IMG/VR virus record: IMGVR_UViG_3300045988_123953
DNA from: a virus
Direction: 5' to 3' (one strand)
DNA: 64,000 bases
Both the position numbers and the translations under genes were made by a program. Shown piece after piece: positions 14,936 through 50,167 of this stretch (positions are counted from its first letter, which is position 1; every line of letters starts with the position of its first letter). The notes beneath the pieces were generated by a model. It searched no databases. It was not told the origin of the DNA and saw only the letters and a list, made by a program, of their open reading frames with translations.

Positions 14936-15133
14936 ATGAGAATCAGTACCATCAAACGTAACAACAGCATTCATCTTATGTATAAAAACATTATGAATGA
15001 TTTAGGTCAATTAAGAACTGTAGTTTCAAAATCCTATATTTATAATCTGATACAAAATCAAACCGGATTAAGTATCAGAACTGTATCCCATGTACTTAAC
15101 CATACCAAAGAACAGGATACGGATTCTTTGTGA
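14936..15133 (+). CDS. Small putative helix-turn-helix DNA-binding protein (65 aa)
   Basis: Segment NLIQNQTGLSIRTVSHVLN resembles the LacI/Xre-type HTH recognition helix (xSxxTVSRVLN); lies in a 680-nt non-coding gap and is followed by a terminator-like hairpin. Confidence 0.35.
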   Translation: MRISTIKRNNSIHLMYKNIMNDLGQLRTVVSKSYIYNLIQNQTGLSIRTVSHVLNHTKEQDTDSL

Positions 15134-15219
15134 AAAGCATGTATTTTCATACATTTGTTCGTTCTTTAGTTTTAGTAGGGAAAAGCTTTTCATGGTATTT
15201 TGGTTTAGATTAGTTGAGG

Positions 15220-15249
15220 CAGGATTCGCAGTGATGCGGATCCTGTTTT
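15220..15249 (+). terminator. Rho-independent terminator-like hairpin (10-bp stem CAGGATTCGC/GCGGATCCTG, loop AGTGAT, then TTTT)
   Basis: Stem pairing read directly from sequence (one G-U pair) followed by T4. Confidence 0.5.
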
Positions 15250-15301
15250 GATTTACAGCGCTTTACCCAAAAAAAGAAAAGCGAAAGTTGCTGATTATCA
15301 A

Positions 15302-15323
15302 TTTTTCCCCATAAATGGGGAAA
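15302..15323. promoter_or_regulatory. Perfect 9-bp palindromic hairpin TTTTCCCCA-TAAA-TGGGGAAAA upstream of the Gly/Asn/Cys-rich gene
   Basis: Seen directly; no T-run, so more likely an operator/RNA structure than a terminator. Confidence 0.4.
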
Positions 15324-15468
15324 ACTACTCGTTGTATATTATATTTCCGTTTTTACTGAAAATCCTTCCATTTTATCGGAAACAAACTCAGCCTTGTTCC
15401 ACCCTGCAATCATGATCTTTGTTACGTGCTTCATGCACGTATGTTTAACAATTAAATACTATAAAATT

Positions 15469-16476
15469 ATGGGTGGTGATAAAATCGTCCTTTTAGATGG
15501 AGCCGGGGCTAACGGTGGTGGTGCAGCCACTAACGGTCTTCTTTCAATGATTCCCGGCATGTTTGCTAATTTGATAGGTGGTAATAAAATGGATCCGAAT
15601 CTGGTGGCGGCTTTGATGAACGGTCGTAACAACCAGGACGGTTTCGGTGGGGCTAACGGTTGGTGGCTCTGGATAATTGTTTTGTTCTGGCTGTGGGGTG
15701 GACGCGGCTTCGGTAACGGTTTTGGAAATGGCGGTGATTGTTGTGCCAATGGTTTGCCGGCTCAGTTGAATAACGATTACGGTCGTGAACTTTTGATGCA
15801 GGCAATTCAAGGTAATCGTAGCGCCATAGATCAGATTGCTTCTGCTTTGAACTGTTCTACTACTCAACTTCAGAACGCTATCTGCAACGTACAGGGTGCT
15901 ATTGATAAAGTAGCTGGTCAGGTAGGTATGACTTCTCAGGCTGTTATCAACGCAGTTCAACAACAAGGTTGTGAAATAGGAAATCAAATCAGCTCTTGCT
16001 GCTGCAATCTGAGTTCGTTGATCAATCAAAGCACTTGCCAGACTCAGGGAATGATTACTCAGCAAGGTTTTGATAACCAGCTTCGCACGTTGGAACAAAC
16101 CAATGTCTTGCAGAACGGTCTCAACCAAGGTCTGGCTAACAATCGTGAGCAAGCTACAAGCCAATTCAATATCTTGTCTGCGAAACTTGACGCCCAAACC
16201 GTTATGATCAACGACAAATTCTGTCAGTTGGAAATGAGGGAAATGCAGAACACTATTGCTCAACTTCGTGAAGAAAAAGCGGCTTTGACAGCTTCGGCAT
16301 TATCTCAGCAACAAACCCAGAATATCGTTGGTCAATTACGCCCGACGGCCGTCCCGGCCTACCCCTCTTGTTCTCCTTACCAGGCTTATACTTGGGGACA
16401 GGTATTCGGAGGAGGTTGCTGTAATAACGGATGCGGATGTAACAACGGATGTTGCAATAACAACGCTGCTGTCTGA
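15469..16476 (+). CDS. Gly/Asn/Gln/Cys-rich low-complexity membrane protein (Trp-rich TM segment WWLWIIVLFWLW; C-terminal GGGCCNNGCGCNNGCCNNN)
   Basis: ORF open from 15394, but the first 25 codons look non-coding-like, so the start is assigned to ATG 15469 (MGGDKIVLL). Extreme composition read from the translation. Confidence 0.5.
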   Translation: MGGDKIVLLDGAGANGGGAATNGLLSMIPGMFANLIGGNKMDPNLVAALMNGRNNQDGFGGANGWWLWIIVLFWLWGGRGFGNGFGNGGDCCANGLPAQLNNDYGRELLMQAIQGNRSAIDQIASALNCSTTQLQNAICNVQGAIDKVAGQVGMTSQAVINAVQQQGCEIGNQISSCCCNLSSLINQSTCQTQGMITQQGFDNQLRTLEQTNVLQNGLNQGLANNREQATSQFNILSAKLDAQTVMINDKFCQLEMREMQNTIAQLREEKAALTASALSQQQTQNIVGQLRPTAVPAYPSCSPYQAYTWGQVFGGGCCNNGCGCNNGCCNNNAAV

Positions 16477-16499
16477 TTTTATTAAGAAAGGAGGCTAAT

Positions 16500-16913
16500 A
16501 TGGCTTGTGTTTCTAAAATAGGATCGTTGTATGAGATGGTTACGAAGAATGTTATTGTCAGTACGACAAATACAGTCTTCGGTATTAACCCACGGGCTTG
16601 GATCGCCCTTCCGTGTGAGGGTCTTATCCTTCTTAAGATAAGGCAAGTAGTCCCCACAGCCGGAAGTGCTCTACCGGTACAGATTGCGGTCCCGGCAAAC
16701 AGCACAGTTTCAACAGTAGGAGCCGACACCTGTTGCCCGGTTACGGGAGTGAATGTCGTGAACCCTATTAACGTAGCTGTCACGGGTGCTGCTATGGTAA
16801 ATGGCACAGAACGCCTTCTGTACTTCAATAAAGTTCGTGGCGTGTTAAGATTAATGGATTGTTGTGTTCCGACAACAACAGCCCAGGCGTCTGAAGTTAA
16901 AGCAGGTAAATGA
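16500..16913 (+). CDS. Hypothetical protein (137 aa), Thr/Val/Ala-rich
   Basis: ATG preceded by AAAGGAGG 7 nt upstream; followed by a strong terminator. Confidence 0.65.
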   Translation: MACVSKIGSLYEMVTKNVIVSTTNTVFGINPRAWIALPCEGLILLKIRQVVPTAGSALPVQIAVPANSTVSTVGADTCCPVTGVNVVNPINVAVTGAAMVNGTERLLYFNKVRGVLRLMDCCVPTTTAQASEVKAGK

Positions 16914-16920
16914 TTTCAGT

Positions 16921-16950
16921 AGGGTGATGAAGATCATCACCCTATTTTCA
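16921..16950 (+). terminator. Rho-independent terminator (9-bp stem AGGGTGATG/CATCACCCT, loop AAGAT, then ATTTTCA)
   Basis: Perfect stem read from sequence, T-run downstream. Confidence 0.55.
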
Positions 16951-16963
16951 CCTAACTAATATT

Positions 16964-17458
16964 TTGATCATGTTTTCAGATTTGAAGAAAGGGTTTCAGG
17001 TACATACCCTTGATACTAATACAGTACCTAAATACGAATTGGGAAAGGTAGTAGCCGTATCCGAACCCAGGTATCTTCCTCCTCAGCCAGGTCAGTATCA
17101 GGCGATGCAGACCCGCGTGGTGGATCTGACGGTAGAGCTCACTGGCGAAACCAAGACCTATACGGTCCCGGAATCCCAGAATGTGGCTAAGGCTATGGGC
17201 ATAACATTATCTACCAGCATAGATCCGATTATGAACGAACTGAATGCTATAAAAAACACCAGTCAAGACATAATAAACAGCGTAGATGCCCATCGTGCCA
17301 AGATAGAGGCTTGTGAATCTATATTAGAAGACATCAATCCGGCATTCAAACAAACGAGAGAGCAGGATCGTAAAATAGCTGGTATAGAAAATAAGGTGAA
17401 TGACCTTACTGATTCATTCGAAGATTTAAAGAAGTTAATTGTAGAACGTTTGAAATAA
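16964..17458 (+). CDS. Hypothetical protein (164 aa)
   Basis: ORF; TTG at 16964 or ATG at 16970 as start. Confidence 0.55.
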   Translation: MIMFSDLKKGFQVHTLDTNTVPKYELGKVVAVSEPRYLPPQPGQYQAMQTRVVDLTVELTGETKTYTVPESQNVAKAMGITLSTSIDPIMNELNAIKNTSQDIINSVDAHRAKIEACESILEDINPAFKQTREQDRKIAGIENKVNDLTDSFEDLKKLIVERLK

Positions 17459-17465
17459 GTGTAAT

Positions 17466-17834
17466 ATGATAGTATATGATTTAAATTCAGGACACAGAGA
17501 ATATCCTGGATATGACGAGATAGAAGACAGACGAGGTGGAGGCAGAGGCAGAAGCCGGCGTTCTGATGGGACGTACATGGGGTACGGTGGTGGTATTTAC
17601 GACCATTACGGTATGCATGAGAAGATGAAGGAAATGGAAGAACGCGAAAACGAGCTGGAAGAAAGGGAAAGAAGGCTTGAAGAGCGCGAACGTCGTCATG
17701 AAATGGAGGACCGGGAATACCGGAGGATGGGTTACGAATCCTACCCGACCGATTACTATGGAGACGACAGATACTACGGTGACGGACCTCAGATGCGTAG
17801 AGGTCGCGGACGTGGCAGAGGTCGTTCTTATTGA
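17466..17834 (+). CDS. RGG/RG-repeat and Glu/Arg-rich low-complexity protein (122 aa)
   Basis: Translation contains GGGRGRSRR, ERERRLEERERR, DRYYGDG and a C-terminal GRGRGRGRSY; ends with TGA, and the same frame stays open for a further 128 codons. Confidence 0.5.
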   Translation: MIVYDLNSGHREYPGYDEIEDRRGGGRGRSRRSDGTYMGYGGGIYDHYGMHEKMKEMEERENELEERERRLEERERRHEMEDREYRRMGYESYPTDYYGDDRYYGDGPQMRRGRGRGRGRSY

Positions 17835-17927
17835 GGAGCAGACGCAGAGGATCCAGCTTATCAGAAATATGTAGATACTTACGGCTACCATTTTTCTAAT
17901 GCTCTCGCTGATGAGGCGGTAAAGAAG

Positions 17928-18221
17928 ATGGTCAACGTCGATGGATCCAAGAGGATCTGGAAGCAGCCGGAAATAAAAGATATTTTTGAAAAGTGCGGAG
18001 CGAAGAAGCCGGATAAAGCGACATGGGGCGATGTCCAATATGTCTTTGCAATGTACTATTCGGATGGTTTTCCGAAGGTCTTCAAATGTGAGAACGAGTT
18101 GGTGAAAGCTACGTTAATGTATTTGGATGATCCGGATGCTCCCGAAGGAGTAGCCTTTATAAGATGGCTTGCCGTGCAAGATTACCTCGGCGAAAAAATA
18201 AACTGGAAGGATCTGACCTGA
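17928..18221 (+). CDS. Hypothetical protein (97 aa from first ATG; frame open back to the TGA at 17833-17835)
   Basis: Same frame as the upstream RGG gene, separated by a single TGA. Confidence 0.4.
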   Translation: MVNVDGSKRIWKQPEIKDIFEKCGAKKPDKATWGDVQYVFAMYYSDGFPKVFKCENELVKATLMYLDDPDAPEGVAFIRWLAVQDYLGEKINWKDLT

Positions 18222-18272
18222 GATCCAGATCCAGGTCCTTCCGGTGGTGCGGGAGCCATAGTAAAAAATATG

Positions 18273-18298
18273 ATTCCCGCATTCCCGTTTTTCCCGTT
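18273..18298. repeat. Three direct TTCCCG repeats (gaTTCCCGcaTTCCCGtttTTCCCGttt)
   Basis: Seen directly in the intergenic region after the 17928..18221 ORF. Confidence 0.4.
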
Positions 18299-18384
18299 TG
18301 GAAAAAAAAGAATAAAAATATTATACCGGTCGGCGGGCAATAGAATACCCGTGGCCGGTTTGTTTCACATAACTTTTTTTTGAC

Positions 18385-18561
18385 ATGAATATAGCACACG
18401 AATCTAAATCGAATAAAACCCCATTGTATTTAATAGGAGAGTTGATTGGCGTACCGAATACGGTTATGGACTCAGCATTGCATGAACTAAAAGATAGAAT
18501 AGACAAAGACCCTAAGTATAAAGATGTTAAAAATTGGCTCGAATCTTTACCCAAGATCTGA
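18385..18561 (+). CDS. Small hypothetical protein (58 aa), not in ORF track (below length cutoff)
   Basis: ATG 18385 immediately after a TTGACA box; stop TGA 18559-18561 followed by a terminator. Confidence 0.35.
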   Translation: MNIAHESKSNKTPLYLIGELIGVPNTVMDSALHELKDRIDKDPKYKDVKNWLESLPKI

Positions 18562-18584
18562 ACCTATTTTTTTTCAATACCAGG

Positions 18585-18620
18585 CCCGATGCGATTTTAA
18601 CGTATCGGGTTTTTATTTTA
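18585..18620 (+). terminator. Rho-independent terminator (stem CCCGATGCG/CGTATCGGG, then TTTTTATTTT)
   Basis: Hairpin with one mismatch plus a long T-run. Confidence 0.55.
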
Positions 18621-19012
18621 ATTCATATTGTTTTATTTTAAATCTAATTAATTCATGAATGTCGTACTTTTGTTGAAAAAGTATTCTATATGGAAAATAA
18701 GGAAGATTACGTTGGTTACGAAGATCAAGAACTGTGTAACCGGTATTACAAAGAGGCTGAAGCCATGAGGCAAAAGCAGGACTGGTCTCGGCTTAGGGCT
18801 GTCCCTGCTCCGGCCAAGGGAACGCCATCGCCCGGCTGGGGTCAGCTTGGACGTGGAAATGGTGTCCGTGTTAAGTATGTGAGTATCAATTCAGGATTGG
18901 GAGGAGATAGGTTATGACCGTAGAAGAATTAGCTAATAAAAGATACGGTGGCGAATTTGTTTTCATATCCGAAATAACATTAAAACAATATAATTTCATT
19001 ATAAGGTTTTAA

Positions 19013-19256
19013 TATCCGGACCATAAATGGTCCGGATATTAGCCTAAGCCTTGAAACGAAGGCTACGTTATTTGAGAATAGATAGTTATCTACGGATGTT
19101 TGCCCAAGTCTGTAGCTCTAAGGTGGGTGATTAAACAGGAGTAGTGTATTTGCGAAACAGTGTTGCTTACGAAAAACCTTAAATAACATTGGCGATGGGT
19201 ACTAACAGAGTTTTACTCTGACTTATGTTGAATAAACATTGAAAACGTTTGTAAGT
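19013..19256 (+). ncRNA. Putative omega-RNA (IscB guide-RNA scaffold), copy 1
   Basis: Non-coding segment immediately 5' of iscB, about 90% identical to the segment 5' of the second iscB copy; the differences include two fully compensatory changes in a 6-bp hairpin (AGCCTT-GAAACG-AAGGCT vs AGTGTT-GAAACA-AACACT) and loop-only changes in a second hairpin (CAGAGT-TTT-ACTCTG); begins with a 9-bp hairpin ATCCGGACC-ATAAAT-GGTCCGGAT. Confidence 0.55.
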
Positions 19257-20477
19257 ATGGTGTACGTACAGGATATAAATGGTAAACCTATGATGCCTAC
19301 AACGAGGCATGGTAAGGTAAGGAGACTGCTTAAAGACAAAAAGGCAATCGTTGTAAACCTATGTCCGTTTACCATCAAATTAATGTACGTTACATCTGAT
19401 TACAAACAAGAAATCGTGTTAGGCGTTGATGCTGGTACTAAACATGTTGGTTTATCAGCTACAACGAAAAGCAAAGAACTTTACAGTAGTGAAGTGATCC
19501 TTAGAAATGATATCGTAGATCTTTTGTCTACCAGAAGGGAGCTACGAAGAACAAGACGGAATAGGTTGAGGTATAGAAAACCTCGTTTCAATAATAGAAT
19601 AAAAAGCAAGCGTCCAGGATGGGTAGCACCTTCGGTGAAGTACAAAATAGACGCCCATATTCGTGTTATTGACAATGTATGTTCTATATTACCAATATCT
19701 CGTATTGTTATTGAAGTAGCTCAATTTGATACCCAAAAAATCAAGAATCCCGATATCTCCGGTAACGAATATCAGGAAGGGGATCAACTTGGTTTTTGGA
19801 ACACAAGGGAATATGTCTTGGCAAGGGATGGGCATAAATGTCAGTATTGTAAAGGGAAGTCAAAAGATAAGATCCTTAATGTCCATCATCTTGAATCCCG
19901 AAAAACGGGAGGTGATTCCCCTTCTAATCTTATTACCTTATGTGAAACTTGTCACAAAGAATACCATAAAGGTAATATAGATTTAAAGATCAGAAGAGGC
20001 AAGTCGCTCCGCGACGCAGCCGTAATGGGAATCATGAAATGGAGGTTGTATGAAGAACTAAAATCTAAATACGACAATGTTTCTATGACTTTCGGGTATG
20101 TTACAAAATACAATAGGATTAATCATGGTATTGAAAAATCCCATGTTTCTGATGCCTTTGTCATTTCTAAGAACTTCAACGCGAAACGAATCGGATGTCA
20201 ATATTTAAAACGTTTAATTCGTAGACATAACAGGCAAATACATAAAATGAAAATTTTAAAAGGAGGAAAGAAGAAAAACAATCAAGCTCCTTTTGAGGTT
20301 TTCGGTTTTAGATTGTTTGATAAAGTGTTGTATAACAATGAAATATTCTTTGTTTATGGAAGGAGGAAATCAGGGAGTTTCAATATCAGGGATTTCAACG
20401 GAGAAAATTCAAAAGATGTTTCACACAAAAAGTTTAAACTCATTAGAGGGAAGAGGCATCCGATTATATTAAAGTAA
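19257..20477 (+). CDS. iscB: IscB RNA-guided nuclease (OMEGA system), intact, 406 aa from ATG 19257
   Basis: Domain order read from the translation: PLMP-like N-terminus (NGKPMMPT), RuvC-I (VLGVDAGTKHVGLS), Arg-rich bridge helix (RRELRRTRRNRLRYRKPRF), RuvC-II (IVIEVAQFD), HNH (CQYCKGK...NVHHLESRKTGGD...LITLCETCHKEYH), RuvC-III (KSHVSDAFVIS). ORF track starts at an upstream TTG (19239); copy 2 starts at the ATG. Confidence 0.9.
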   Translation: MVYVQDINGKPMMPTTRHGKVRRLLKDKKAIVVNLCPFTIKLMYVTSDYKQEIVLGVDAGTKHVGLSATTKSKELYSSEVILRNDIVDLLSTRRELRRTRRNRLRYRKPRFNNRIKSKRPGWVAPSVKYKIDAHIRVIDNVCSILPISRIVIEVAQFDTQKIKNPDISGNEYQEGDQLGFWNTREYVLARDGHKCQYCKGKSKDKILNVHHLESRKTGGDSPSNLITLCETCHKEYHKGNIDLKIRRGKSLRDAAVMGIMKWRLYEELKSKYDNVSMTFGYVTKYNRINHGIEKSHVSDAFVISKNFNAKRIGCQYLKRLIRRHNRQIHKMKILKGGKKKNNQAPFEVFGFRLFDKVLYNNEIFFVYGRRKSGSFNIRDFNGENSKDVSHKKFKLIRGKRHPIILK

Positions 20478-20514
20478 ATGAATAGATTTAATAAATTTAA
20501 TATAAAAACGTATC

Positions 20515-20820
20515 ATGTATAATAAAGAAATAGTAATATGCGCCGCCATCTGGGTGCAGGACGGCAAGAAGCGTCCCCATCAGCCCACCAATATACCATC
20601 CGGCGCCGTGTTCTGTGGATTGAGACATTGTTCTATCATTTCTCAGTTTGTAGCTTATGGTATTGCTCATAAAAACCGCAGTGTTCAAGGATTTTTGACG
20701 AGCAAGAACCGGTTTTTAACAAGAGAGGAAGCGTCTGAACTTGTTAGAAATAATAATCAAGAAATGGTAGTAGATAGGAGTGCCATTAGAGAACAATTGT
20801 ATTCAGAAGATCTATATTAA
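20515..20820 (+). CDS. Hypothetical protein (101 aa) immediately downstream of the iscB element
   Basis: ORF; followed by a terminator. Confidence 0.45.
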   Translation: MYNKEIVICAAIWVQDGKKRPHQPTNIPSGAVFCGLRHCSIISQFVAYGIAHKNRSVQGFLTSKNRFLTREEASELVRNNNQEMVVDRSAIREQLYSEDLY

Positions 20821-20841
20821 CTAAAAACAAAACAACAAATA

Positions 20842-20872
20842 AAGTCGGATACTTAAGTTATCCGACTTTTTA
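20842..20872 (+). terminator. Rho-independent terminator (10-bp stem AAGTCGGATA/TATCCGACTT, then TTTTT)
   Basis: Perfect stem and T-run read from sequence. Confidence 0.55.
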
Positions 20873-20885
20873 GTATATTTGTGGC

Positions 20886-21209
20886 ATGGCAAGAGGTTAT
20901 TATTGGATACCGCAGACAGATGAAACGTTAAATGGCATAAGCTATTACGTGACTAAGGTAGTAGGAGATATAGTGTTTGATACTAAACGAAAAAGAATAG
21001 TGTTTCAAACTACCAGGTATTTCCCAGTAGGCTCCGTATTCCATTTTACTCACAACTGCTTTAAATACGTCATAACCTGCCGGCTCCGTAAGCCGGGGCT
21101 TTGGTTTGAAGCCAGGAGAGAAGATTCGGGCCCTATTTGCCCTGAAGATATTGAGCGCTTTGAATCGGGAAGGTTTATTCACCGAGATGGGTACATGCAT
21201 TACATATAA
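20886..21209 (+). CDS. Hypothetical protein (107 aa), bracketed by terminators
   Basis: ORF between two intrinsic terminators. Confidence 0.4.
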   Translation: MARGYYWIPQTDETLNGISYYVTKVVGDIVFDTKRKRIVFQTTRYFPVGSVFHFTHNCFKYVITCRLRKPGLWFEARREDSGPICPEDIERFESGRFIHRDGYMHYI

Positions 21210-21213
21210 GCCG

Positions 21214-21252
21214 AACTTGACAATTGGCGTCAAGTTATAATTATTTTTTTTT
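21214..21252 (+). terminator. Rho-independent terminator (stem AACTTGAC/GTCAAGTT, then T-rich run)
   Basis: Perfect 8-bp stem and T9 tract. Confidence 0.5.
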
Positions 21253-21352
21253 CATATTATTTTTAAGCCATCAGACTGAGAAGTTAGATGGCTTTGTTTT
21301 ATCATATGCTTGATTTTTAACTACCTTTGTCTTATAACAAAAATGTTTTACT

Positions 21353-24300
21353 ATGACATCAACGTGTATTATTAAAAGAGATAATAAAAAGAAAGTTGTT
21401 TCTGTCTCTACCAGATCAGGGGACAGGTCTATGTTGTTTGATAAAATAGCATCTATTCCTCTTATGGAGAACAGGGAACGGGCTACTACTGTTTTTAAAA
21501 CCGTATTTTCTAATAAGTTCTTAAAGGCTTTTGGTGACTGGAGAAGGAATGTACCTGTTAATAAACAGGCTTATAATAAGGTAAAATCCAACATCGGCCT
21601 TATTCCGGAAGCCTATAGAGAAAGGGTGCTGGATAAGGCTTCTAAGATGAGTAATCCTATTCTTGTGTCAAAATCAGATGCACCTTATGAAATCCGAGAA
21701 TCGGGCTTTGGATTTTACAGCCAAGATCTGGGTGATAATATTATGTTGGTGGATGCTATGGTCCCGTCAAGTATTTCTGTACCGGAAGGACCGGGAATAG
21801 ACGCCGGACAGTATCTACAAGATGCTATATCTTCGGACTTCACTCCCGTATCTATGGTACAGGATAAGGGTGTTAATTATATGGTTATAAAAGACGGTCT
21901 TAAGATATTTAGCCCAGAAGAGTTACCACAGACAGATTCTAATCCTGTGGGTGTAACGTATCAGACCGGAGAGCCTCGTTTGTTTTTCATGAACGATCGT
22001 AATCAATTATTTGAAGATTACGGAGAAGCTCTTCGCTCTGGCGGGAATGATATTAGAATAGGATTCTTATCAGGCACCGTTCAAGAATCTGCCTGGGATG
22101 GCGTGGCAGACATTACTTACAAAGCTGGAAGGTATGTTCTTAATAATCCCAAATCTTTTATACCGGTCATGACCGCTTCTGCTTCTACTTCTTTATCAAC
22201 AAAAGGTGGTATAATTAACTACCTTATAAAGAAAGGTCTTTTGTCCGGATCTAAGATATTCGATCCTGAAACAAGAAGCTATTATCTTACAGGAGAAGGT
22301 CATACAGGACAAATTAGACTTTTCAATTCAGCCTTATCCTACACCGAGCTCCGTAATCATTTTGGTTCAGATGTTTCCATGAACGACCAAGGTATGATAA
22401 CCATAAGCTCGTTGGATAATAGTAAGGTAACTATGAGGCTCGCCACCGGAGGAACGGAAAGGGTTAGCAAAGAGCAGATAAAGAACGATCTCAAGTCAGG
22501 AAGATACAATGAATTGGACGCCAAGTACGATCATTTTGATGCGCTTGTAGTTTCATTCATATTAGAAGACAACGATCTTTATGCTGATACTAAAGCTAAG
22601 ATCGTATCAGATTATAGCAGGCAGGAACGTGATCAACGAAATTCTATTGTCGAGATACTGAAAACGCTTGGCGTTAGTGTCATAGGTATGACCGATTATA
22701 TAGAGAAGTACCAAACCAAATACGGGCATGAACCTTCTGCTAAGGCATTGGCGGATATTGCTAATAACGTAATAGCAGTTGGTGAAGATGCTACTTTATC
22801 TGATTTAGTAGAAGAAACAGCCCACTTCCTTGTAGAGGCATACAGAGACCAGAATGCTGTTGAGGCTGTTCTGCAAGATGTAGAAGGTACGGAAGAGTGG
22901 AACCAGTATGCAGGTCAGTATTATAATACATACGGTAAGGTATATGAAGGAGCTGAGCTTGATAATGCTGTTAGGAGAGAAATTCTTGGAAAGATCCTTG
23001 CCAGGGAGATGCAGACCGGCACAGCACAGGCGCCGGTAGAGCCCACCTCCTTCCTGGGGCGCGTCCGGCAGCTTCTCTCTGGAATCGTAAACTGGCTTAA
23101 ATCAGCTTTATCTACCCAAAGACAAGATTTGAATAACGTTATTAAAAACATTCGTGATCTTGCTATTACCGACATAGATAAAGGATTTGATACTTCTCTT
23201 TTAAAGGATAATGATTTTACATTATACTCTCTTTCCTCTATGAACAAGAACAAGTTTCTTGAGTCTAAGATCCGGGCATTGAGAAAAACATTGAGAGACT
23301 TACGTCAGATAAGCTCTGATAGGGCTGTAACTACATCTATGACCCTTGCTCAGCTTAAGACCATAGAAGATAAGATAAATAAGGTAGAGACCGAAATAGA
23401 CAAAAATGAGATGGCGGCTGCCATGAATAGCATGATCTCCACAGCCGAAGCTCAGGTCAGATACTTAAGCAATGTAGTAAATACTATCCTTCATGGTGAT
23501 ACCAAAGACGGTAAGCTTCATTTCAATACCAATGATCGAAAGAACGTAGATATTATCAACAATCAGGTTCTTCCGATCATGAACGATCTTCGAGGATATA
23601 TCCGTAACAGAAGTACCGAATTTGATGAACGTGAAAAGCAGGATTATACAAATAGGATCAATACCGTCATTGCCGACATCAATGGTATTCAGTCTGATAT
23701 TAAGTCAGTGCAAGACCTTGATGAAAGTACGTTGCTTGATAAGTTAATGAACGAACTTCATGTGCCGGCAGATAAGGTAAAGAGAGTAAAAGAATTTTTT
23801 GACAAGGTTCAACACGATGTTTCTTGGATAAGTAGGTGGTTCGGTATATTAGAGCATTCCTCCAGCCCGTTCAACAACGCTCTCGGAGCTATGATTGCCA
23901 AAGATAATTACAATGCGATGGTAAATGCCCAGCCCGCTATATCTGATTTCCTGGCATATGCTAAAAAGCATGGTTTTAACAAATCTGAATTTGAAAAACT
24001 GCTTCAGAAAGTAGACGGCAAAACTTCCAATTACCTTCGTAGTGCTCTTGATATGGCTAAATATGATCGTAATAAGAAGTTGGCACAGATGCGTGCGTTT
24101 GCTACTGCCATGAACATAGAAATATCAGAAGAAGAAATCAATGATGTGGTTGACAATAACCGTAATTACGTATTTAAAAGAGAAGTAGTTGACAAGGACG
24201 GAAATACGGTTACTGAAAACGCTAAATTTAAGCCCTCATCTGACAGGGTTAATACTGATATTTTTACCATCGAGCAGGAAAAGATCTATACAGAACAGAT

Positions 24301-27300
24301 GGAAAAGTGGGATGCTGAAAATTCAGAATTGGAATTTAGTGAAAGTTATGCCACAAGAATGGAATCCATATACAAAAAGGCTGAAGAAGAATTGGGGTAT
24401 CCGGTTTCTCAAACAACCAAAGAATACCTTAATGCCCTATCCCGGCAAAAACGGATATTGAGGCAGCCTTTTATTGATAGCGGTGGTAATTTTGATGAGG
24501 TTGCTTACTATAAGAGTAGTAACTACGAAGAAGAAGGACTGCTTCGTAAACAACGTAAGGAAGCAGCTTCGGAATACATATATGTAGGGACCAGACGTGT
24601 TGAAAAAACCGGCGACCAACTGATGATGGCCAAAGAAATACAAGCCATAAATGAAGTTTGGAGAAAAGAATCAAATAATGCCACTAATGCCGTATCAGAA
24701 TCGTTTTTGCAAAAATTAAGAACGATTCAGAACGAGTCAGGAGGAGAAGCTGCGTTGAAGACACTTATGTTGGGAGGTCACCTGTCATTCAACGATCGGT
24801 TTTGGAATGATGTAGAATCAGAACAGTCGGCACGTACCGAATCAAATAACAAGGCTTCGTATCTTAAAATGGCGCATGATATCATTAGTTCTACGACAAG
24901 TGATAGAGATGCGACTGACGTGGATTCTATTGTGAAAGATATAGAAAAAAATAAGGCTATTATCAAGGAAATAATCGGAAACAATCGCGATGTGGCTGAT
25001 ATCGGAGAAATTAACGAAGCGACATTTACCTCATCCGAAAGAGATGCTTTTAGGGCCGCATCTGAAGCTATTGAAGCCGATTACGCTATTTTGATAGATT
25101 ATGCTAAGATGGTGGGTCTTGAAGATATTGATAAGTACCTTACTAAAAGCAGTAAGGCTGAAAACGAAGTAAATCAGTCTTATTTAAATGCTCTTGCTGA
25201 CTCCAAGGAAGTGGAATGGAAGTTCGTACAACGTCATACTACGGCGAAGAAAGCAAAAAGGATTCAGGCTTTAAGGGATAAGCTGTTTAAGGCTGCTGAT
25301 AACCGATATCTGTTTACCGTATCTGAAACCAACTACCTGTCAGAAAAGCTTGGTATAAGCAAAGAATTAGACGGTAGAGATTTCAGGAATGCTGTTAATG
25401 CTAAGATGGCCAGCTTATTTTTAAATAATACAAGAGAAGAGGGCGTAGAAGAAGCTAATGCTATTGTTAATGAATTTGCCAGAAGCCAGGTTTTTTCGTA
25501 CTATAAACGCATGGCGCCTACCGGATATGCAGCTATGATCGACAAAATCGGTCGAGGTGAGATAGATGTGGCGCAAATGGTTAAAGACGTACAGAACGGA
25601 ACATCCACCCAAGATTACGGTATGGACATATCATACCTGTCTTTTGACCCTGCAAGGGCATGGGTGGCTGAATCTGAAGCCGAAAATAGCGGCCGTAATC
25701 CTGATTATGTAAAAGATCATGGGTATGGTCATCGCATGCCCAAGAAAAGCCTGTATCGTGATGAATCGTATTTTAATGACTTTGGTATCAAGTATGATGC
25801 TGACGGTAATGAGGTCGCTACTAAAAACGTAGAGCAGTGGAATATGATTCAAAAACTCAAGGAAATAAAAAGACAATCCCTTGATCTATACAAAGAGCAG
25901 AGCCCGAACCTGTATGCTATTCCACAGATATCAAAACAAGACATAGAACGTGTAGAAGGATTGGGTATTAACTTCAAAAATACGGTTCGTAATTTTGTAT
26001 CAGATCTCTGCCTGGACAGAGTAGACGATTCTCTATACGGTAAAACCAGACAAGGGGAAGTATATGATCCGGAAGATAGGGTTCGGTCCATACCTAAATA
26101 CTACATATATGAATTAGAGAACCAAGATAACGTATCTCATGATTTTGGTTACTCTTATTCGATGCTTATGATGCAATCATCATTATACAACGAAAAGCAG
26201 AAATCTATAGAGCTTGCCCAAGGACTGGAGCAGATGTTACTGAATAAGCAATTTGAAGGCGGTAAGAAAGCTGAAGCAACCCAAGCATATCAGATGTTCA
26301 GGGACTTCTTCAATGACCATTATTATGGCATTAGGATGAACACCAAAAAACTTACGGTGAACATCGGTGGGTACACAGTAGACCTTACCAGGATAATGAT
26401 GGCCGTTGAAAGATTTATGTCGGTTATGAACCTGGCGCTGTCCCCGTTTGTGGCAGCTACCGGCGCCCTTACAGGTCATATCAACCTCATCATGGAATCT
26501 GCCGTAGGACAGTATATAAGCAAAGACTCCCTTAAATACGCATCGGCTGAATTTTCACGCCTTGCTCCATCTTGTATAGCAGAAACCGGAGACATAGATA
26601 GGAAAAGCAAATTATATGTCATAGGTGAGAGAATGGGGATATTCAATATCCGAAATCGTATGTATGGTGCCGGATATAATAGAGTGGCCAGGACCTTAAT
26701 GCGTTCACCTATGTATGCTTTTATGGAAATCCTGAACTACCCTCTTGATCCGCAGGTTATGATTGCTACTATGGACAATGTTCGTTATTACAAAGGCCGG
26801 TTCTACACGTTCCAAGATTTCAAGATGGAAAAAGAACGCAATAAAGAACAGAGTACCATAAAAAGAGAATGGAACGCATTAAAAGATCGTACTTTATGGA
26901 GTATGGTAGACGTCGTGGATGGAAAGGTGGTTGTAAAGCCCGGATCAGGTGTTACTGTTGAGGAAGTTGAAACCCAGATGGCTATAACCAGGAATCAAGT
27001 CCGTAGCTTGTCGCAGATATGTAACGGATCTTTGAATGAAGAAAACCGAACTGCCGCATCGCGCAACTGGATAGCCAGGTTCATGATCGCCCACCGAGGA
27101 TGGTTGGTGCTGGCGGCTCAACGTCTGTGGAAAAGACGTGGCTTCAATTTCCAGACAATGCAAGAAGAGGAAGGGTTGTCAATTACGTTAAAGAATATGA
27201 TAGCCAAAACATTTAGCTTAGCTTCCGAGTCTGGTATGAAAAACATCATAGATGCCTGGAACGAAAATAAAGACAATATGAATGAGGTAGAGAAAACCAA

Positions 27301-27775
27301 TCTCAAACGTCTCAGTGTCTATGCCGGCACGTTTCTTATCATGCAAGCCGTATCTATGCTTCTTGCCGGATGGCGTGATGATGATGAAAACGAAGAAAGT
27401 TGGCTTACTCAATTCGGATCCTATGTAGGATTCAGAACCATAAACGAAATAGCTTCACAGATGCCGTTTATTATGGAGCTTAACGTTGTAGATATCATTA
27501 ACGACCCGTTTGTTATGGGACGGAAGCTGAAGGATCTTACCGATCTTAGGAATTATTCACTTGATAAAGTAACATCCGGTACATACAAGGGAGAGTCTAA
27601 GTTATTTAGGCAACTCGTCAAACAGACGTTTATCAAACAATGGTATAACATTAAGACGCCGGAAGACGTAGCACGCGCCTATAACTGGTGGCAGCAGACG
27701 AACAACAAGTCAATGATGTTTTTCATCGGTGCCACTCCTGATTCAGAAGGAGACGATGATGTGAGCTACAAGTAG
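21353..27775 (+). CDS. Giant hypothetical protein (2140 aa), probably virion-associated; coiled-coil-rich with a C-terminal hydrophobic segment
   Basis: 6.4-kb uninterrupted ORF after a promoter-like AT-rich gap. Confidence 0.65.
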   Translation: MTSTCIIKRDNKKKVVSVSTRSGDRSMLFDKIASIPLMENRERATTVFKTVFSNKFLKAFGDWRRNVPVNKQAYNKVKSNIGLIPEAYRERVLDKASKMSNPILVSKSDAPYEIRESGFGFYSQDLGDNIMLVDAMVPSSISVPEGPGIDAGQYLQDAISSDFTPVSMVQDKGVNYMVIKDGLKIFSPEELPQTDSNPVGVTYQTGEPRLFFMNDRNQLFEDYGEALRSGGNDIRIGFLSGTVQESAWDGVADITYKAGRYVLNNPKSFIPVMTASASTSLSTKGGIINYLIKKGLLSGSKIFDPETRSYYLTGEGHTGQIRLFNSALSYTELRNHFGSDVSMNDQGMITISSLDNSKVTMRLATGGTERVSKEQIKNDLKSGRYNELDAKYDHFDALVVSFILEDNDLYADTKAKIVSDYSRQERDQRNSIVEILKTLGVSVIGMTDYIEKYQTKYGHEPSAKALADIANNVIAVGEDATLSDLVEETAHFLVEAYRDQNAVEAVLQDVEGTEEWNQYAGQYYNTYGKVYEGAELDNAVRREILGKILAREMQTGTAQAPVEPTSFLGRVRQLLSGIVNWLKSALSTQRQDLNNVIKNIRDLAITDIDKGFDTSLLKDNDFTLYSLSSMNKNKFLESKIRALRKTLRDLRQISSDRAVTTSMTLAQLKTIEDKINKVETEIDKNEMAAAMNSMISTAEAQVRYLSNVVNTILHGDTKDGKLHFNTNDRKNVDIINNQVLPIMNDLRGYIRNRSTEFDEREKQDYTNRINTVIADINGIQSDIKSVQDLDESTLLDKLMNELHVPADKVKRVKEFFDKVQHDVSWISRWFGILEHSSSPFNNALGAMIAKDNYNAMVNAQPAISDFLAYAKKHGFNKSEFEKLLQKVDGKTSNYLRSALDMAKYDRNKKLAQMRAFATAMNIEISEEEINDVVDNNRNYVFKREVVDKDGNTVTENAKFKPSSDRVNTDIFTIEQEKIYTEQMEKWDAENSELEFSESYATRMESIYKKAEEELGYPVSQTTKEYLNALSRQKRILRQPFIDSGGNFDEVAYYKSSNYEEEGLLRKQRKEAASEYIYVGTRRVEKTGDQLMMAKEIQAINEVWRKESNNATNAVSESFLQKLRTIQNESGGEAALKTLMLGGHLSFNDRFWNDVESEQSARTESNNKASYLKMAHDIISSTTSDRDATDVDSIVKDIEKNKAIIKEIIGNNRDVADIGEINEATFTSSERDAFRAASEAIEADYAILIDYAKMVGLEDIDKYLTKSSKAENEVNQSYLNALADSKEVEWKFVQRHTTAKKAKRIQALRDKLFKAADNRYLFTVSETNYLSEKLGISKELDGRDFRNAVNAKMASLFLNNTREEGVEEANAIVNEFARSQVFSYYKRMAPTGYAAMIDKIGRGEIDVAQMVKDVQNGTSTQDYGMDISYLSFDPARAWVAESEAENSGRNPDYVKDHGYGHRMPKKSLYRDESYFNDFGIKYDADGNEVATKNVEQWNMIQKLKEIKRQSLDLYKEQSPNLYAIPQISKQDIERVEGLGINFKNTVRNFVSDLCLDRVDDSLYGKTRQGEVYDPEDRVRSIPKYYIYELENQDNVSHDFGYSYSMLMMQSSLYNEKQKSIELAQGLEQMLLNKQFEGGKKAEATQAYQMFRDFFNDHYYGIRMNTKKLTVNIGGYTVDLTRIMMAVERFMSVMNLALSPFVAATGALTGHINLIMESAVGQYISKDSLKYASAEFSRLAPSCIAETGDIDRKSKLYVIGERMGIFNIRNRMYGAGYNRVARTLMRSPMYAFMEILNYPLDPQVMIATMDNVRYYKGRFYTFQDFKMEKERNKEQSTIKREWNALKDRTLWSMVDVVDGKVVVKPGSGVTVEEVETQMAITRNQVRSLSQICNGSLNEENRTAASRNWIARFMIAHRGWLVLAAQRLWKRRGFNFQTMQEEEGLSITLKNMIAKTFSLASESGMKNIIDAWNENKDNMNEVEKTNLKRLSVYAGTFLIMQAVSMLLAGWRDDDENEESWLTQFGSYVGFRTINEIASQMPFIMELNVVDIINDPFVMGRKLKDLTDLRNYSLDKVTSGTYKGESKLFRQLVKQTFIKQWYNIKTPEDVARAYNWWQQTNNKSMMFFIGATPDSEGDDDVSYK

Positions 27776-31613: not shown

Positions 31614-31925
31614 TTAATCTGATAATTTTTCTATTTTAATTAATTTTGATGATAGATACATATTCCATTTCCCTCTGCCTCTGTCACCTTTTTCGTTTTG
31701 TTTTTGGATTGTCAAGTACAGATCTCCGTCTTCACATACTTCAACTTTTTTCAAGAAGCCTATCATTTCATCTCCTGCTTCGTGTAAAATACGGATCTTA
31801 TCTCCTTCTTTTAACCCATAATTGGAATCAAAGTATTCTTTTTTGATTCTATCAATATTGTCTTTATGGTTTTTTATAGCATAAAGCTCTTTTCTTAATA
31901 AATAATTTAGTTGTTCTATTGTCAT
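31614..31925 (-). CDS. Hypothetical protein (103 aa)
   Basis: ORF. Confidence 0.5.
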   Translation of the reverse strand: MTIEQLNYLLRKELYAIKNHKDNIDRIKKEYFDSNYGLKEGDKIRILHEAGDEMIGFLKKVEVCEDGDLYLTIQKQNEKGDRGRGKWNMYLSSKLIKIEKLSD

Positions 31926-32479
31926 TTCTTTTCCTCCTTGTTTAATGGTATCAACCCTTTTCCATGCTTGTCATACCACAGCATAGCTATACAGTTCCAT
32001 GCACATTGTGCAAGATGAAAACATCCTGTATCGGAATCCACTCTTTCCCCTTTCATGTATTCCATTAGGTGTCTGGCAGCCGCAGCACGATACCGTTCAA
32101 ACCCGTTGTCAAGGTTCTGCCATTTATTGGGTCCGTACTTCTTTGCACCAGCATGATAGACTCTTACAATGTCCTCAATCTCTTCCATTGGAAGCAAATC
32201 CCATCGTAGTTTATCGTCTATGATGTCATTCTTCACCGATTTATTTTCTACGGGGTCTTTGGAAAGAATAATATCCATAATATCCGTTTCTATGACGAAC
32301 GTCTCCCCATTACAACAAACCTCAGCATATTTATCATTTACTTCTATGTCTGATACTGCCTCCGCTATAGCTCCTTTGGCTATTTTAAATTCTGCACTGA
32401 TTATATCATCTTTCAATATGCGAAAAATAGATCCTTTTGGATAAAGGATATTTTTAGTATTATCATCCATCTTTTCCAT
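31922..32479 (-). CDS. Hypothetical protein (185 aa); possibly the phage dATP/dGTP pyrophosphohydrolase-like N-domain family (very tentative)
   Basis: ORF; segment WDLLPMEEIEDIVRVYHAGAKKYGPNKWQNL vaguely recalled as similar to that family; unverified. Confidence 0.5.
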   Translation of the reverse strand: MEKMDDNTKNILYPKGSIFRILKDDIISAEFKIAKGAIAEAVSDIEVNDKYAEVCCNGETFVIETDIMDIILSKDPVENKSVKNDIIDDKLRWDLLPMEEIEDIVRVYHAGAKKYGPNKWQNLDNGFERYRAAAARHLMEYMKGERVDSDTGCFHLAQCAWNCIAMLWYDKHGKGLIPLNKEEKK

Positions 32480-48083: not shown

Positions 48084-48570
48084 TCTTCTTCTCGCCTAAT
48101 TTTTCAGCTCCCTTCTGAAGATCATATTTGAATACGTCAATGATCTTCGTTTCAGCAATAGCTTCGCAATTCCAGTCGCCTAACGTGCCCTGCATACCTT
48201 TAGTCAACACAGCTTCGGCATCCTTAGGATTGCCGGCCTGGACATACATATAGCATGGAGTTTTCTTTTCTTTACCTTTCTTTTCATCCAGTGTAATGTA
48301 ATTTACCTTACACTTATACCAGTACTCAGCTTCTCCGTTGAAGAAGATTTCCGACACTTTAATAGGATTTATTTTAACAATGTCGAACACTTGAAATAAA
48401 TCCTTGAAAATCTCTAAAGATCTTGATTCTGCCTCTGTATAAGATAAGGCATCTACCAAATACTTTTCAGTTACCTTCTTTTTTTTGCCGTTCTCGATAT
48501 TATCAATCTCGGCTTTTACTGTGATTTCAAACCAACGATTCATGTCTATATTTTTATTCAAATTAATCAA
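48073..48570 (-). CDS. Hypothetical protein (165 aa) abutting the iscB copy-2 stop
   Basis: ORF; TTG start, or ATG at MNRWFEI. Confidence 0.5.
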   Translation of the reverse strand: MINLNKNIDMNRWFEITVKAEIDNIENGKKKKVTEKYLVDALSYTEAESRSLEIFKDLFQVFDIVKINPIKVSEIFFNGEAEYWYKCKVNYITLDEKKGKEKKTPCYMYVQAGNPKDAEAVLTKGMQGTLGDWNCEAIAETKIIDVFKYDLQKGAEKLGEKKSEE

Positions 48571-49793
48571 TCCATTTCCTTTTGTACCATAAAGCGTTTA
48601 CACCTTGATAATTTCAATTTCTTGTATGTAATATCTCTTTGGTTTTTACCATCAATATCTCGAATATTAAAACTACCGGTTTTACGCCTTGCGAATATAA
48701 AATAATAACTGTTTTCAAACATAACCCTATCAAACAATCGGAAACCAAAAACTTCAAAAGGAGATTGATTTGGTCTTTTTATCCCTCCTTTTGGAATCTT
48801 TTGTTTATGGATCTGACGATTATGTCTTCTTACTAATCTTACTTTATAATAATATCCTAACCTTATAGCATCAAAGTTTTTAGAAATAACAAATGCATCG
48901 AAAACATGAGATTTTTCAATACCATGTTTAATCCTATTGTATTTTGTAACATAACCGAAAGTCATAGAAACTCTGTTGTATTTAGACCTTAGTTCTTCAT
49001 ACAATCTCCATTTCATTATTCCCATTACGGCTGCGTCGCGAAGCGACGATCCCCGTTTGATCTTTAAATCTATATTACCTTTATGGTATTCTTTATGACA
49101 AGTTTCACATAAGGTAATAAGATTAGATGGGGAATCTCCACCTGTCTTTCGTGATTCAATATGATGAACATTCAATACTGGGTCTTTTGACTTTCCCTTA
49201 CAATGCTAGCATTTATGTCCATCTCTTGCTAAAACATATTCCCTAACGTTCCAAAATCCAAGTTGATCACCCTCCTGATATTCTTTACCTGATATATTAG
49301 GATTGTTAATCTTTTGAGTATCAAATTGAGCTACTTCGATAACAATACGAGATATTGGTAATATAGAACATACATTGTCAATAACACGAATATGGGCGTC
49401 TACTTTGTATTTCACCGAAGGTGCTACCCATCCCGGACGCTTACTTTTTATTCTATTATCAAAACGAGGTTTTCTATATCTCAATCTATTTCGTCTTGAT
49501 CTTCGTAGCTCCCTTCTGGTAGACAAAAGATCTACGATATCATTTCTAAGAATAACTTCACTGCTGTAAAGTTCTTTGCTTTTCGTTGTAGCCGATAGAC
49601 CAACATGTTTAGTACCAGCATCAACGCCTAACACAATTTCTTGTTTGTAATCAGATGTTACGTACATTAATTTGATGGTAAACGGACATAGGTTTACAAC
49701 GATTGCCTTTTTATCTTTAAGCAGTCTCCTAACCTTACCATGCCTTGTTGTAGGCATCATAGGTTTACCATTTATGTCTTGTACGTACACCAT
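48567..49793 (-). pseudogene. iscB: iscB copy 2, interrupted by a single in-frame TAG (49203-49205) at the position of Gln in copy 1 (HKC*HCKGK vs HKCQYCKGK)
   Basis: ORF track splits it into 49206..49793 (PLMP, RuvC-I, bridge helix, RuvC-II) and 48567..49175 (HNH, RuvC-III) in the same frame; ~93% aa identity to copy 1, with nucleotide differences mostly synonymous. Confidence 0.75.
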
Positions 49794-50055
49794 ATCTACA
49801 AACGTTTTTAATGTTTATTCAACATAAGTCAGAGTGAAACTCTGTTAGTACCCATCGCCAATGTTATTTAAGGTTTTTTTTGTAAGCAACACTGTTCCTG
49901 AATACCAGAACTGTTTAATCACTTACCTTAGAGCTACGAACTTGGGCAAACATCCGTAGGTAACTATCTATTCTTAAATAACGTAGTGTTTGTTTCAACA
50001 CTTAGGCTAATAATCGGAATAGCTTTTGGCTATTATGCATAATACAATACAAATT
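49794..50055 (-). ncRNA. Putative omega-RNA, copy 2 (minus strand)
   Basis: Reverse complement aligns to 19037-19256 with covarying hairpins; begins with a 6-bp hairpin AATAGC-CAAA-GCTATT, then the shared ATTAGCCTAAG. Confidence 0.5.
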
Positions 50056-50167
50056 GTTTATGATTTGTATGGGTTATGCATTATTCTCGATTATTCTGTT
50101 TGTTTTTTTGGACAAAGATATGTCTTTTGATAATAAAAAAGATTCAAAATGATTTAATTTAGCTTAA

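Follow-up and report, generated by a model that had tools for sequence, protein, structure and literature searches.

An IscB–ωRNA element in epsilon crAss-like phages, probably a non-autonomous member of the IS200/IS605 type, and its ATG-flanked insertion sites

The presence of an iscB-like gene in IMG/VR virus record IMGVR_UViG_3300045988_123953 raises the question of what an RNA-guided nuclease does in a phage, and how it came to be there. Cas9 is presumed to descend from IscB and its ωRNA, and what is known of their natural role comes, to our knowledge, from no more than a few bacterial elements examined in E. coli. We analysed 64,000 nucleotides of this record, referred to here as the window. 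A sequence-only reading of the window had placed a complete IscB and a putative ωRNA at 19013-20477, inside a phage structural region with no tnpA nearby, and had named homing, interference against competing phages and a selfish passenger as candidate roles. Our data indicate that this locus, called copy 1, belongs with a second copy in the window to a lineage that moves within and between epsilon crAss-like phages and is probably a non-autonomous IS200/IS605-type OMEGA element, made up of an ωRNA gene and iscB without tnpA. Feature coordinates are given in Table 1.

The open reading frame (ORF) of copy 1 encodes 406 aa from its ATG, or 412 aa from a TTG at 19239. Pfam RRXRR matched aa 2-175 with the full model covered (1.2e-59), and Pfam HNH matched aa 195-238 (1.1e-9). 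The NCBIfam equivalog guided_IscB (NF040563, 'RNA-guided endonuclease IscB') matched aa 2-303 with 360.4 bits, above its curated cut-off of 175 bits. The full IscB domain order that had been read from the letters was thereby supported, and every motif quoted for it was present. Solved IscB structures were the best PDB sequence matches of the protein (OgeuIscB, E ~1e-43, and 1e-62 by profile). Alignment to OgeuIscB (7UTN/7XHT) and two 14-sequence alignments with 13 homologues showed that the RuvC residues D58 (GVDAG), E153 (IEVA) and H296/D299 (HVSDAF), which align with the catalytic positions of OgeuIscB, are invariant, as are the HNH residues C195/C198, H210/H211, N224 and C229/C232/H233. Two findings that the sequence-only reading had named as refuting it, a lack of significant IscB profile hits and mutated catalytic residues, were therefore not borne out. 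The C-terminal residues 335-392 were also kept among the homologues. Copy 1 does not belong to the type II CRISPR-Cas9 systems. No CRISPR array lies next to it, only short chance tandem repeats being found in 15000-24000, the protein has 406 aa rather than Cas9 length with a recognition (REC) lobe, and it scored 16 bits against the Cas9d model, for which the cut-off is 375. Copy 1 is a complete IscB gene with an intact ORF and intact catalytic residues, and is predicted to encode an RNA-guided nuclease.

The ωRNA expected upstream of iscB was found on the same strand. Rfam HEARO (RF02033) matched 19012-19206 with 89.3 bits (E 5e-18), spanning the whole model and exceeding the gathering score of 83 bits, and 25 of the 39 consensus pairs showed compensatory changes among 22 sequences. 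The covariance model thus agrees with the position that had been proposed for the ωRNA. Beyond the Rfam model, the pairs of a further 3' hairpin covary (alignment columns 289-291/307-309: GC, AU, CG, UG). Structural elements downstream of the RF02033 model are known to be missing from RF02033 (Meers et al., bioRxiv 10.1101/2023.03.14.532601). The pairing of protein and RNA also bears on whether the gene could be a free-standing, protein-only HNH homing endonuclease of the T4 seg/mob type, with the upstream structure as an unrelated regulatory leader. The gene does lie among conserved phage genes, which is also where free-standing genes of this type are found, and PHROGs and GenBank label such phage genes 'HNH endonuclease'. 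This explanation is nevertheless extremely improbable in view of the guided_IscB equivalog match, the presence of RuvC I-III with a bridge helix, an upstream RNA that is a HEARO/ωRNA with extensive covariation, and the solved IscB structures as best matches by both sequence and fold.

Relatives of copy 1 are abundant in phage DNA, of which the sequence-only reading had given no sign. IMG/VR contains 334 loci with IscB relatives of 85-95% amino-acid identity, mostly on contigs of 80-160 kb and with two copies on several of them (loci are referred to below by L numbers). A metagenome protein database holds at least 8000 relatives, the top 120 of which are all at least 87% identical, and one protein cluster, named 'MAG: RRXRR protein [Bacteriophage sp.]', occurs on 547 contigs. 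Among deposited phage genomes, 34 already contain IscB/HEARO genes, for the most part under the label HNH endonuclease, and IscB genes form a PHROG family. Among species-representative genomes the close matches were two short contigs, probably phage DNA binned with bacteria, and the others were 55-59% identical; no close bacterial homologue with an adjacent tnpA was found in the genome collection. A 20-kb contig of a 'Vibrio olivae' assembly (L112, NZ_JBHMEP010000019.1) carries an IscB 89% identical to copy 1 together with a HEARO match. Most likely this contig comes from a crAss-like phage and either contaminates the Vibrio assembly or was mis-binned into it. A full-length iscB was present in 72 of the 84 copies examined, and about six were disrupted, including copy 2. 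The dN/dS of relatives against copy 1 was 0.05-0.14, indicating that the lineage is under purifying selection.

The phage setting of the element was borne out by its flanks, which are ~95-97% identical to 'phage csAssE-Sib' (OR575929.1, crAssE-Sib), a 151-kb epsilon crAss-like phage of the human gut. This phage has no IscB match by tblastn of the phage collection, and it has other genes at both IscB sites of the window. Two TnpB genes were reported in crAssE-Sib, and TnpB also in other Epsilonunovirus phages (PMC11054128). A text search of that paper found only TnpB-type transposases described and no mention of HNH.

Comparison of related loci defined the ends of the element. On the left, conservation starts at ATATCCG (class A) or ATAATCG (class B), and the flanks that adjoin it are unrelated and number more than 20. 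This opening heptamer pairs at 7/7 positions with the 7 nt ahead of the TAGCC pseudoknot strand, and because this pairing is kept in at least 8 different sequence versions, the boundary of the element corresponds to the first base of ωRNA stem P1. The scaffold thus starts at the transposon boundary and the guide is derived from the flank. On the right, clean empty/occupied pairs show that the inserted segment reaches the last base ahead of an ATG. The interval 19013-20477 given by the sequence-only reading does hold the IscB and the ωRNA, but the conserved element is longer, extending from 18965 to 20514. The placement of the ωRNA in the 5' region was likewise correct, but the reading had missed where the element truly begins on the left and that its 5' end is chimeric.

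ATG recurs at the junctions. At nearly all right junctions, which involve ~14 downstream genes, the right flank opens with the start ATG of a phage gene in the same orientation; the L056-type and L081 variants are less clear as to ATG. At the left junctions, element-free relatives have ATG at the corresponding position in 16 of ~21 distinct cases, for which the chance probability is ~1.6e-23 (ATG frequency is ~2% in the genome). The fourth base, after ATG, is A in about two thirds of cases. Because ATG is found in element-free relatives at these left junctions, we infer that the transposon-adjacent motif (TAM) is ATG(A), equal to that of GstIscB from Geobacillus stearothermophilus. GstIscB and its TnpA share the TAM TTCAT 5' of the transposon left end (LE), and in IscB elements the transposon right end (RE) lies on the ωRNA side (Meers et al.). 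In iscB orientation TTCAT reads ATGAA, the motif found in the phage lineage. Some target ATGs are internal or non-coding, so that selection for harmless sites is not the sole source of the motif, which also reflects the mechanism. The elements point in the same direction as the flanking genes.

Three clean empty/occupied pairs (L059/L006, L040/L083 and L006/L027) revealed precise insertion. Target duplication was absent in two of the three, and L040 is the exception, with a 14-16 nt repeat. The L040/L034-type tail ends in AACGCAAAAAAAGGAA, a near-copy of its own left flank AACGCAAAAAGGAA, and this direct repeat of 14-16 nt is not predicted by peel-and-paste. In L060 and L063 the first 4-13 nt of the element occur in short tandem duplication (TAATCGAGGATAT/TAATCGAGGATAAT and AATAAT/TAATCG; a slash within a sequence marks a junction here and below). 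At the copy 2 site, L061, L058, L064 and L068 are left-junction variants that differ by 6, 10 and ~25 nt; the deletions (6-25 nt, in L058, L064 and L068) end at the element boundary and lie outside the ATG rule. Chew-back by an exonuclease or self-targeting was considered as the cause of nested left junctions, and was superseded by the ATG-junction result. Off-target cleavage as a seed of new junctions, from which similar left flanks would be expected, was also rejected, left-flank pairs with at least 8/12 matches numbering 2 against 0.5 expected, which is not significant.

Table 1. Features of the two IscB–ωRNA copies in the 64,000-nt window
Feature	Position	Strand	Description
Copy 1 candidate guide A, TGGCGAATTTGTTTTC	18949..18964	+	16 nt of phage flank 5' of the long-form boundary; within truncated small ORF (18915..)
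Copy 1 long-form ωRNA 5' domain remnant	18965..19011	+	distal P1 5' strand ATATCCG (18965-18971) and small hairpin
Copy 1 candidate guide B, TCATTATAAGGTTTTA	18996..19011	+	last 16 nt of the 5' domain remnant
Copy 1 ωRNA scaffold (HEARO)	19012..19206	+	RF02033 match; opens with perfect 12-13 bp hairpin 19012-19039
Copy 1 extra 3' ωRNA hairpin, CAGAG-TTTTA-CTCTG	19206..19220	+	beyond Rfam model; covariation
Copy 1 iscB	19257..20477	+	PLMP-like N-terminus, split RuvC, Arg-rich bridge helix, HNH, C-terminal β-rich domain
Copy 1 A/T-rich tail, right end (LE side in TnpA nomenclature)	20478..20514	+	common to class A copies at four different downstream genes
Copy 1 ATG, inferred TAM and start codon of phage gene 20515-20820	20515..20517	+	junction comparison
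Copy 2, second IscB–ωRNA element	48544..50094	-	85.5% nucleotide identity to copy 1
Copy 2 ωRNA left end, ATAATCG..	50094	-	class B-type start
Copy 2 Rfam HEARO	49844-50036	-	113.1 bits
Copy 2 iscB	48567-49793	-	in-frame TAG 49206-49208
Copy 2 flank-derived guide	50095-50110	-	16 nt flank
Copy 2 ATG, inferred TAM and start of DUF4494 gene	48541-48543	-	right junction

In the case of copy 1 there are two candidate guides, corresponding to boundaries at 18965 and 19012. The 16-mer of guide A occurs exactly, followed by ATG, in 35 related loci including crAssE-Sib (L001); the continuation is ATGCTTGG in 24 of them, ATGTTTGG in 8, ATGCTCGG in 2 and ATGCTTGA in 1. Guide B is matched exactly, followed by ATGTACCA, in 6 long-form sibling elements. 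The 5' end of copy 1 is a chimera, in which the long-form domain 18965-19011 is joined to the hairpin 19012-19039. The sequence of this domain opens the element at no fewer than 10 different left flanks in relatives, and in L012 and L041 the Rfam HEARO match begins at the long-form boundary, the counterpart of 18965. The hairpin is formed in the minimum-free-energy fold, where it supplies a second, local P1 strand. Where the chimeric junction of copy 1 falls, long-form elements read ...GGTTTTA/ATGTACC. A short form that starts exactly at the hairpin is found in 3 IMG/VR loci from two contigs (L019/L088/L093), and their flank is followed by ATGAC in L103, which is without the element. Since these relatives start at the same hairpin at a new ATG site, this end appears to work.

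The chimera itself is rare. It was found in just one other IMG/VR contig, at the same site and with iscB deleted, and was absent from the JGI metagenomes searched. That contig (L128, IMGVR_UViG_3300045988_119245, locus 2857-4010 reverse complement) has the left end and left junction of copy 1; its similarity to the window ends at 19165 and restarts at 20839, so that iscB and the downstream small gene are gone and a solitary ωRNA fragment is left. Repeated homing into sibling elements was rejected as the source of the chimeric end, as the chimera is present in one other contig only and at the same site. A fixed, element-internal guide from the ~45 conserved nt upstream of the Rfam start was rejected as well, as this stretch is the long-form P1 strand and 5' domain in relatives. 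Three further loci with the left junction of copy 1 (L014, L090 and L100) combine an ωRNA 5' domain of class B type (ATAATTGTG...) with an iscB and tail of class A type. These mosaics suggest recombination between the two element types, both of which can be present in a single genome, the window being an example.

Copy 2 carries an in-frame TAG in place of the codon for Gln196, inside the first CxxC of the HNH domain. The codon is CAG or CAA in 81 of 82 copies, and TAG in copy 2 alone. Recoding of TAG to Gln was considered and rejected, as no tRNA is found in the window, its large ORFs run without interruption in the standard code, and none of the other 81 copies has the TAG. The lack of a tRNA and the uniqueness of the codon indicate a recent nonsense mutation. 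The ωRNA of copy 2 is intact, and the copy 1 protein might serve it in trans. The copy 2 guide has exact ATG-flanked targets in relatives (CAAAAAAACAAACAGA followed by ATGG), and crAssE-Sib carries an 86-aa ORF at the copy 2 position.

The history of the copy 1 site is recorded in its junctions. Relatives share the right junction, before the gene 20515-20820, but have at least 10 different left junctions, each at a former ATG within a stretch of 1.2-1.7 kb of accessory genes present in other relatives. Codon 17 of a small ORF (18915..) marks the left junction in the window, and relatives have ...TTTGTTTTC/ATGC at this point. Compared with crAssE-Sib, ~1.2 kb is missing at copy 1, comprising the rest of the 18915 ORF, a DUF2829 gene and one more ORF. 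The pattern of left-junction relocation is alike at the second site of the window. Neither the second copy nor the deletion beside copy 1 had been noticed from the letters alone. Relocation of the guide-side end to an upstream ATG would lose the DNA in between, and this explains both the ~1.2 kb missing relative to crAssE-Sib and the combination of one right junction with many left junctions. Two routes fit these data. The element may have re-inserted locally 5' of an upstream ATG, followed by recombination between the two direct copies, or the guide-side end may have moved to a new target in a single intramolecular step. Both routes need transposase chemistry. Neighbouring direct-repeat copies are present in L035, L024 and L082, and such copies could mediate deletions by recombination. 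Gene content in this region varies among close relatives, including the DUF2829 gene and several small ORFs (window 18967-20511 compared with L001 4977-6222, and L001 6548-7374). The copy 1 region is a recombination-prone accessory island, with the IscB element as one fixed edge.

From family knowledge and the junction data a mode of spread can be proposed. The ωRNA is probably transcribed by read-through from upstream genes, and the ~16 nt of flank just 5' of P1 would serve as the guide. IscB–ωRNA would then cut DNA that carries the guide 16-mer followed by ATG(A), either in the empty allele of a co-infecting relative or after excision of the element. Repair by recombination with an element-bearing genome would copy the element in, which amounts to homing, or to retention when excision has preceded. 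Homing by cleavage of empty alleles during co-infection is the mode of spread between genomes best supported by these comparisons. New ATG sites would need a Y1 TnpA supplied in trans. The roles of homing, interference with related phages and selfish passage that had been suggested for the locus all fit the comparative evidence. As for interference, the IscB–ωRNA could be a domesticated and immobile phage weapon that cuts competing relatives or invaders. Its guides do match sequences in related phages with no element at the site in question, purifying selection on the protein is strong, and a transposase was not found. However, the lineage occupies ~14 sites with precise boundaries, with clean empty/occupied pairs and two-copy genomes, the guide is local flank with no fixed sequence, and about six copies are disrupted, including copy 2. 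Such sites, flank guides and disrupted copies are typical of a selfish mobile element, and a weapon of this kind is unlikely. Interference and homing would in any case share one cut and differ only in its outcome.

Several observations weigh against a mobile IS200/IS605-type element. No Y1 transposase (PF01797) was detected by Pfam on coding-strand ORFs of 100-700 aa in the window, no TnpA was found among the copy 1 neighbours with PHROGs, and a six-frame motif scan found no HUH/Y motif ORF in the window or in any of 128 loci, covering 4-5 kb around the related copies. The earlier remark that no tnpA lies nearby therefore holds, and without tnpA in the window the element is at most a non-autonomous member of IS200/IS605. 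A tnpA is found near just ~1.5% of iscB genes (Meers et al.). As DNA, the RE side forms a strong fold (z about -6), but no significant hairpin is present at the LE-side end (z 0.05 and 0.84). Subterminal hairpins are carried by canonical IS200/IS605 ends. The precise-excision joint of copy 1 (...TTTTC/ATGTATAAT) was not found in IMG/VR, and the left junctions of L061/L058/L064/L068 and L084 are not adjacent to ATG. Owing to the chimeric 5' end, the effective guide of copy 1 is ambiguous between A and B. The C-terminal domain of its IscB had no sequence match to the TAM-interacting domains of solved IscB structures in PDB, and the AlphaFold2 model of the protein, built on a shallow alignment, was poor (predicted local distance difference test score, pLDDT, 48.7), with a β-rich part at 356-389 of pLDDT ~70. 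Foldseek with this model ranked IscB structures first, with a template modelling (TM) score of only ~0.2.

Some of these points could also mean that copy 1 is an inactive relic, a decaying passenger with a scrambled guide end and no present nuclease function. The rare chimeric 5' end, known elsewhere only from L128 where iscB is deleted, the nonsense codon in copy 2 and the missing excision joint would agree with decay. Against this, copy 1 has an unbroken ORF that keeps every catalytic residue, its ωRNA scores above the Rfam gathering threshold, short-form relatives have the same starting hairpin at a new ATG site, and the lineage is under purifying selection. A relic is thus quite improbable, and a non-autonomous mobile OMEGA element is the explanation that we retain.

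The element resembles known systems to different degrees. GstIscB (ISGst family, IS200/IS605; Meers et al.) is alike in having the ωRNA upstream of iscB and bounded by RE, a flank-derived guide, the TAM TTCAT (ATGAA in iscB orientation), a mostly non-autonomous state and the same direction as the upstream gene. It differs in being chromosomal, with an active TnpA elsewhere in the same genome, whereas the phage element is known from sequence, resides in a gut phage described as probably lytic, and has no TnpA found and no LE-side hairpin detected. With OgeuIscB (PDB 7UTN, 7XHT), the PLMP, RuvC, bridge-helix and HNH parts of copy 1 align and the catalytic residues are identical. OgeuIscB is longer, at 496 aa compared with 406 aa, its C-terminal domain is unaligned by sequence, and its TAM is NWRRNA and not the ATG(A) inferred for the phage lineage. 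HEARO elements (RF02033) in Staphylococcus Silviavirus phages (PMC13346280) share the RNA family and the gene pairing, so that presence in virulent phages has already been recorded. Those are annotations only, whereas in the crAss-like lineage population data give the boundaries, the target motif and the site history. The TnpB genes of crAssE-Sib and Epsilonunovirus (PMC11054128) are also OMEGA-type nucleases in the same phage group with no reported TnpA, but belong to another nuclease family (a Cas12 ancestor) and have the ωRNA at the 3' end. The T-even seg/mob genes resemble the phage IscB element in lying among conserved phage genes and in being missing from close relatives. Both would be expected to spread in co-infection by a double-strand break and repair, with co-conversion or loss of neighbours. 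The seg/mob genes rely on protein recognition, whereas the IscB element would use an RNA guide with a 3-4 nt motif and has discrete transposon-like ends and many sites.

The wider setting of copy 1 had been described as a phage structural region, and this is broadly correct. Downstream, the first large gene (21353-27775) has a PHROG match to a virion structural protein, but the immediate neighbours are small accessory ORFs with no known function in PHROGs. Two other loci of the window were noted. An ORF at 31922-32479 (- strand) has a dATP/dGTP diphosphohydrolase N-terminal domain (PF18909, 1.2e-24), a family linked to phage base-modification (Z-genome) clusters. A 566-aa protein with SPFH/Band 7 and flotillin domains (8.9e-25 and 3.5e-9) is encoded at 37831-39531 (- strand), an unusual cargo for a phage replication region, and a small membrane-protein-like ORF at 39564-40058 adjoins its gene.

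Our study indicates that copy 1 is a standard IscB–ωRNA OMEGA element of the expected kind in every respect tested. What is modestly new, and undescribed in the literature searched, is the lineage itself, its abundance and multi-copy state in epsilon crAss-like phages, its start-codon-like target and its guide-side deletions. It is possible, though we raise it only tentatively and think it doubtful, that the IscB elements of these gut phages behave as gene drives at the population level and thereby remodel the accessory gene content. Relocation of the guide-side end upstream would delete genes and at the same time rewrite the guide against the relatives that keep them, which would then be cut and converted in co-infection. 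If this is true, copy 1 would be a case in point, as guide A matches the intact small ORF of crAssE-Sib-like phages and guide B a sibling ωRNA gene, both followed by ATG. The lineage offers a compact IscB of 406 aa with a simple inferred TAM. It is also a large natural record in abundant human-gut phages, with hundreds of copies, dozens of empty/occupied alleles, a start-codon-like TAM and guide-side deletions. With this record, it can be tested directly whether OMEGA homing works as a gene drive between co-infecting phages.

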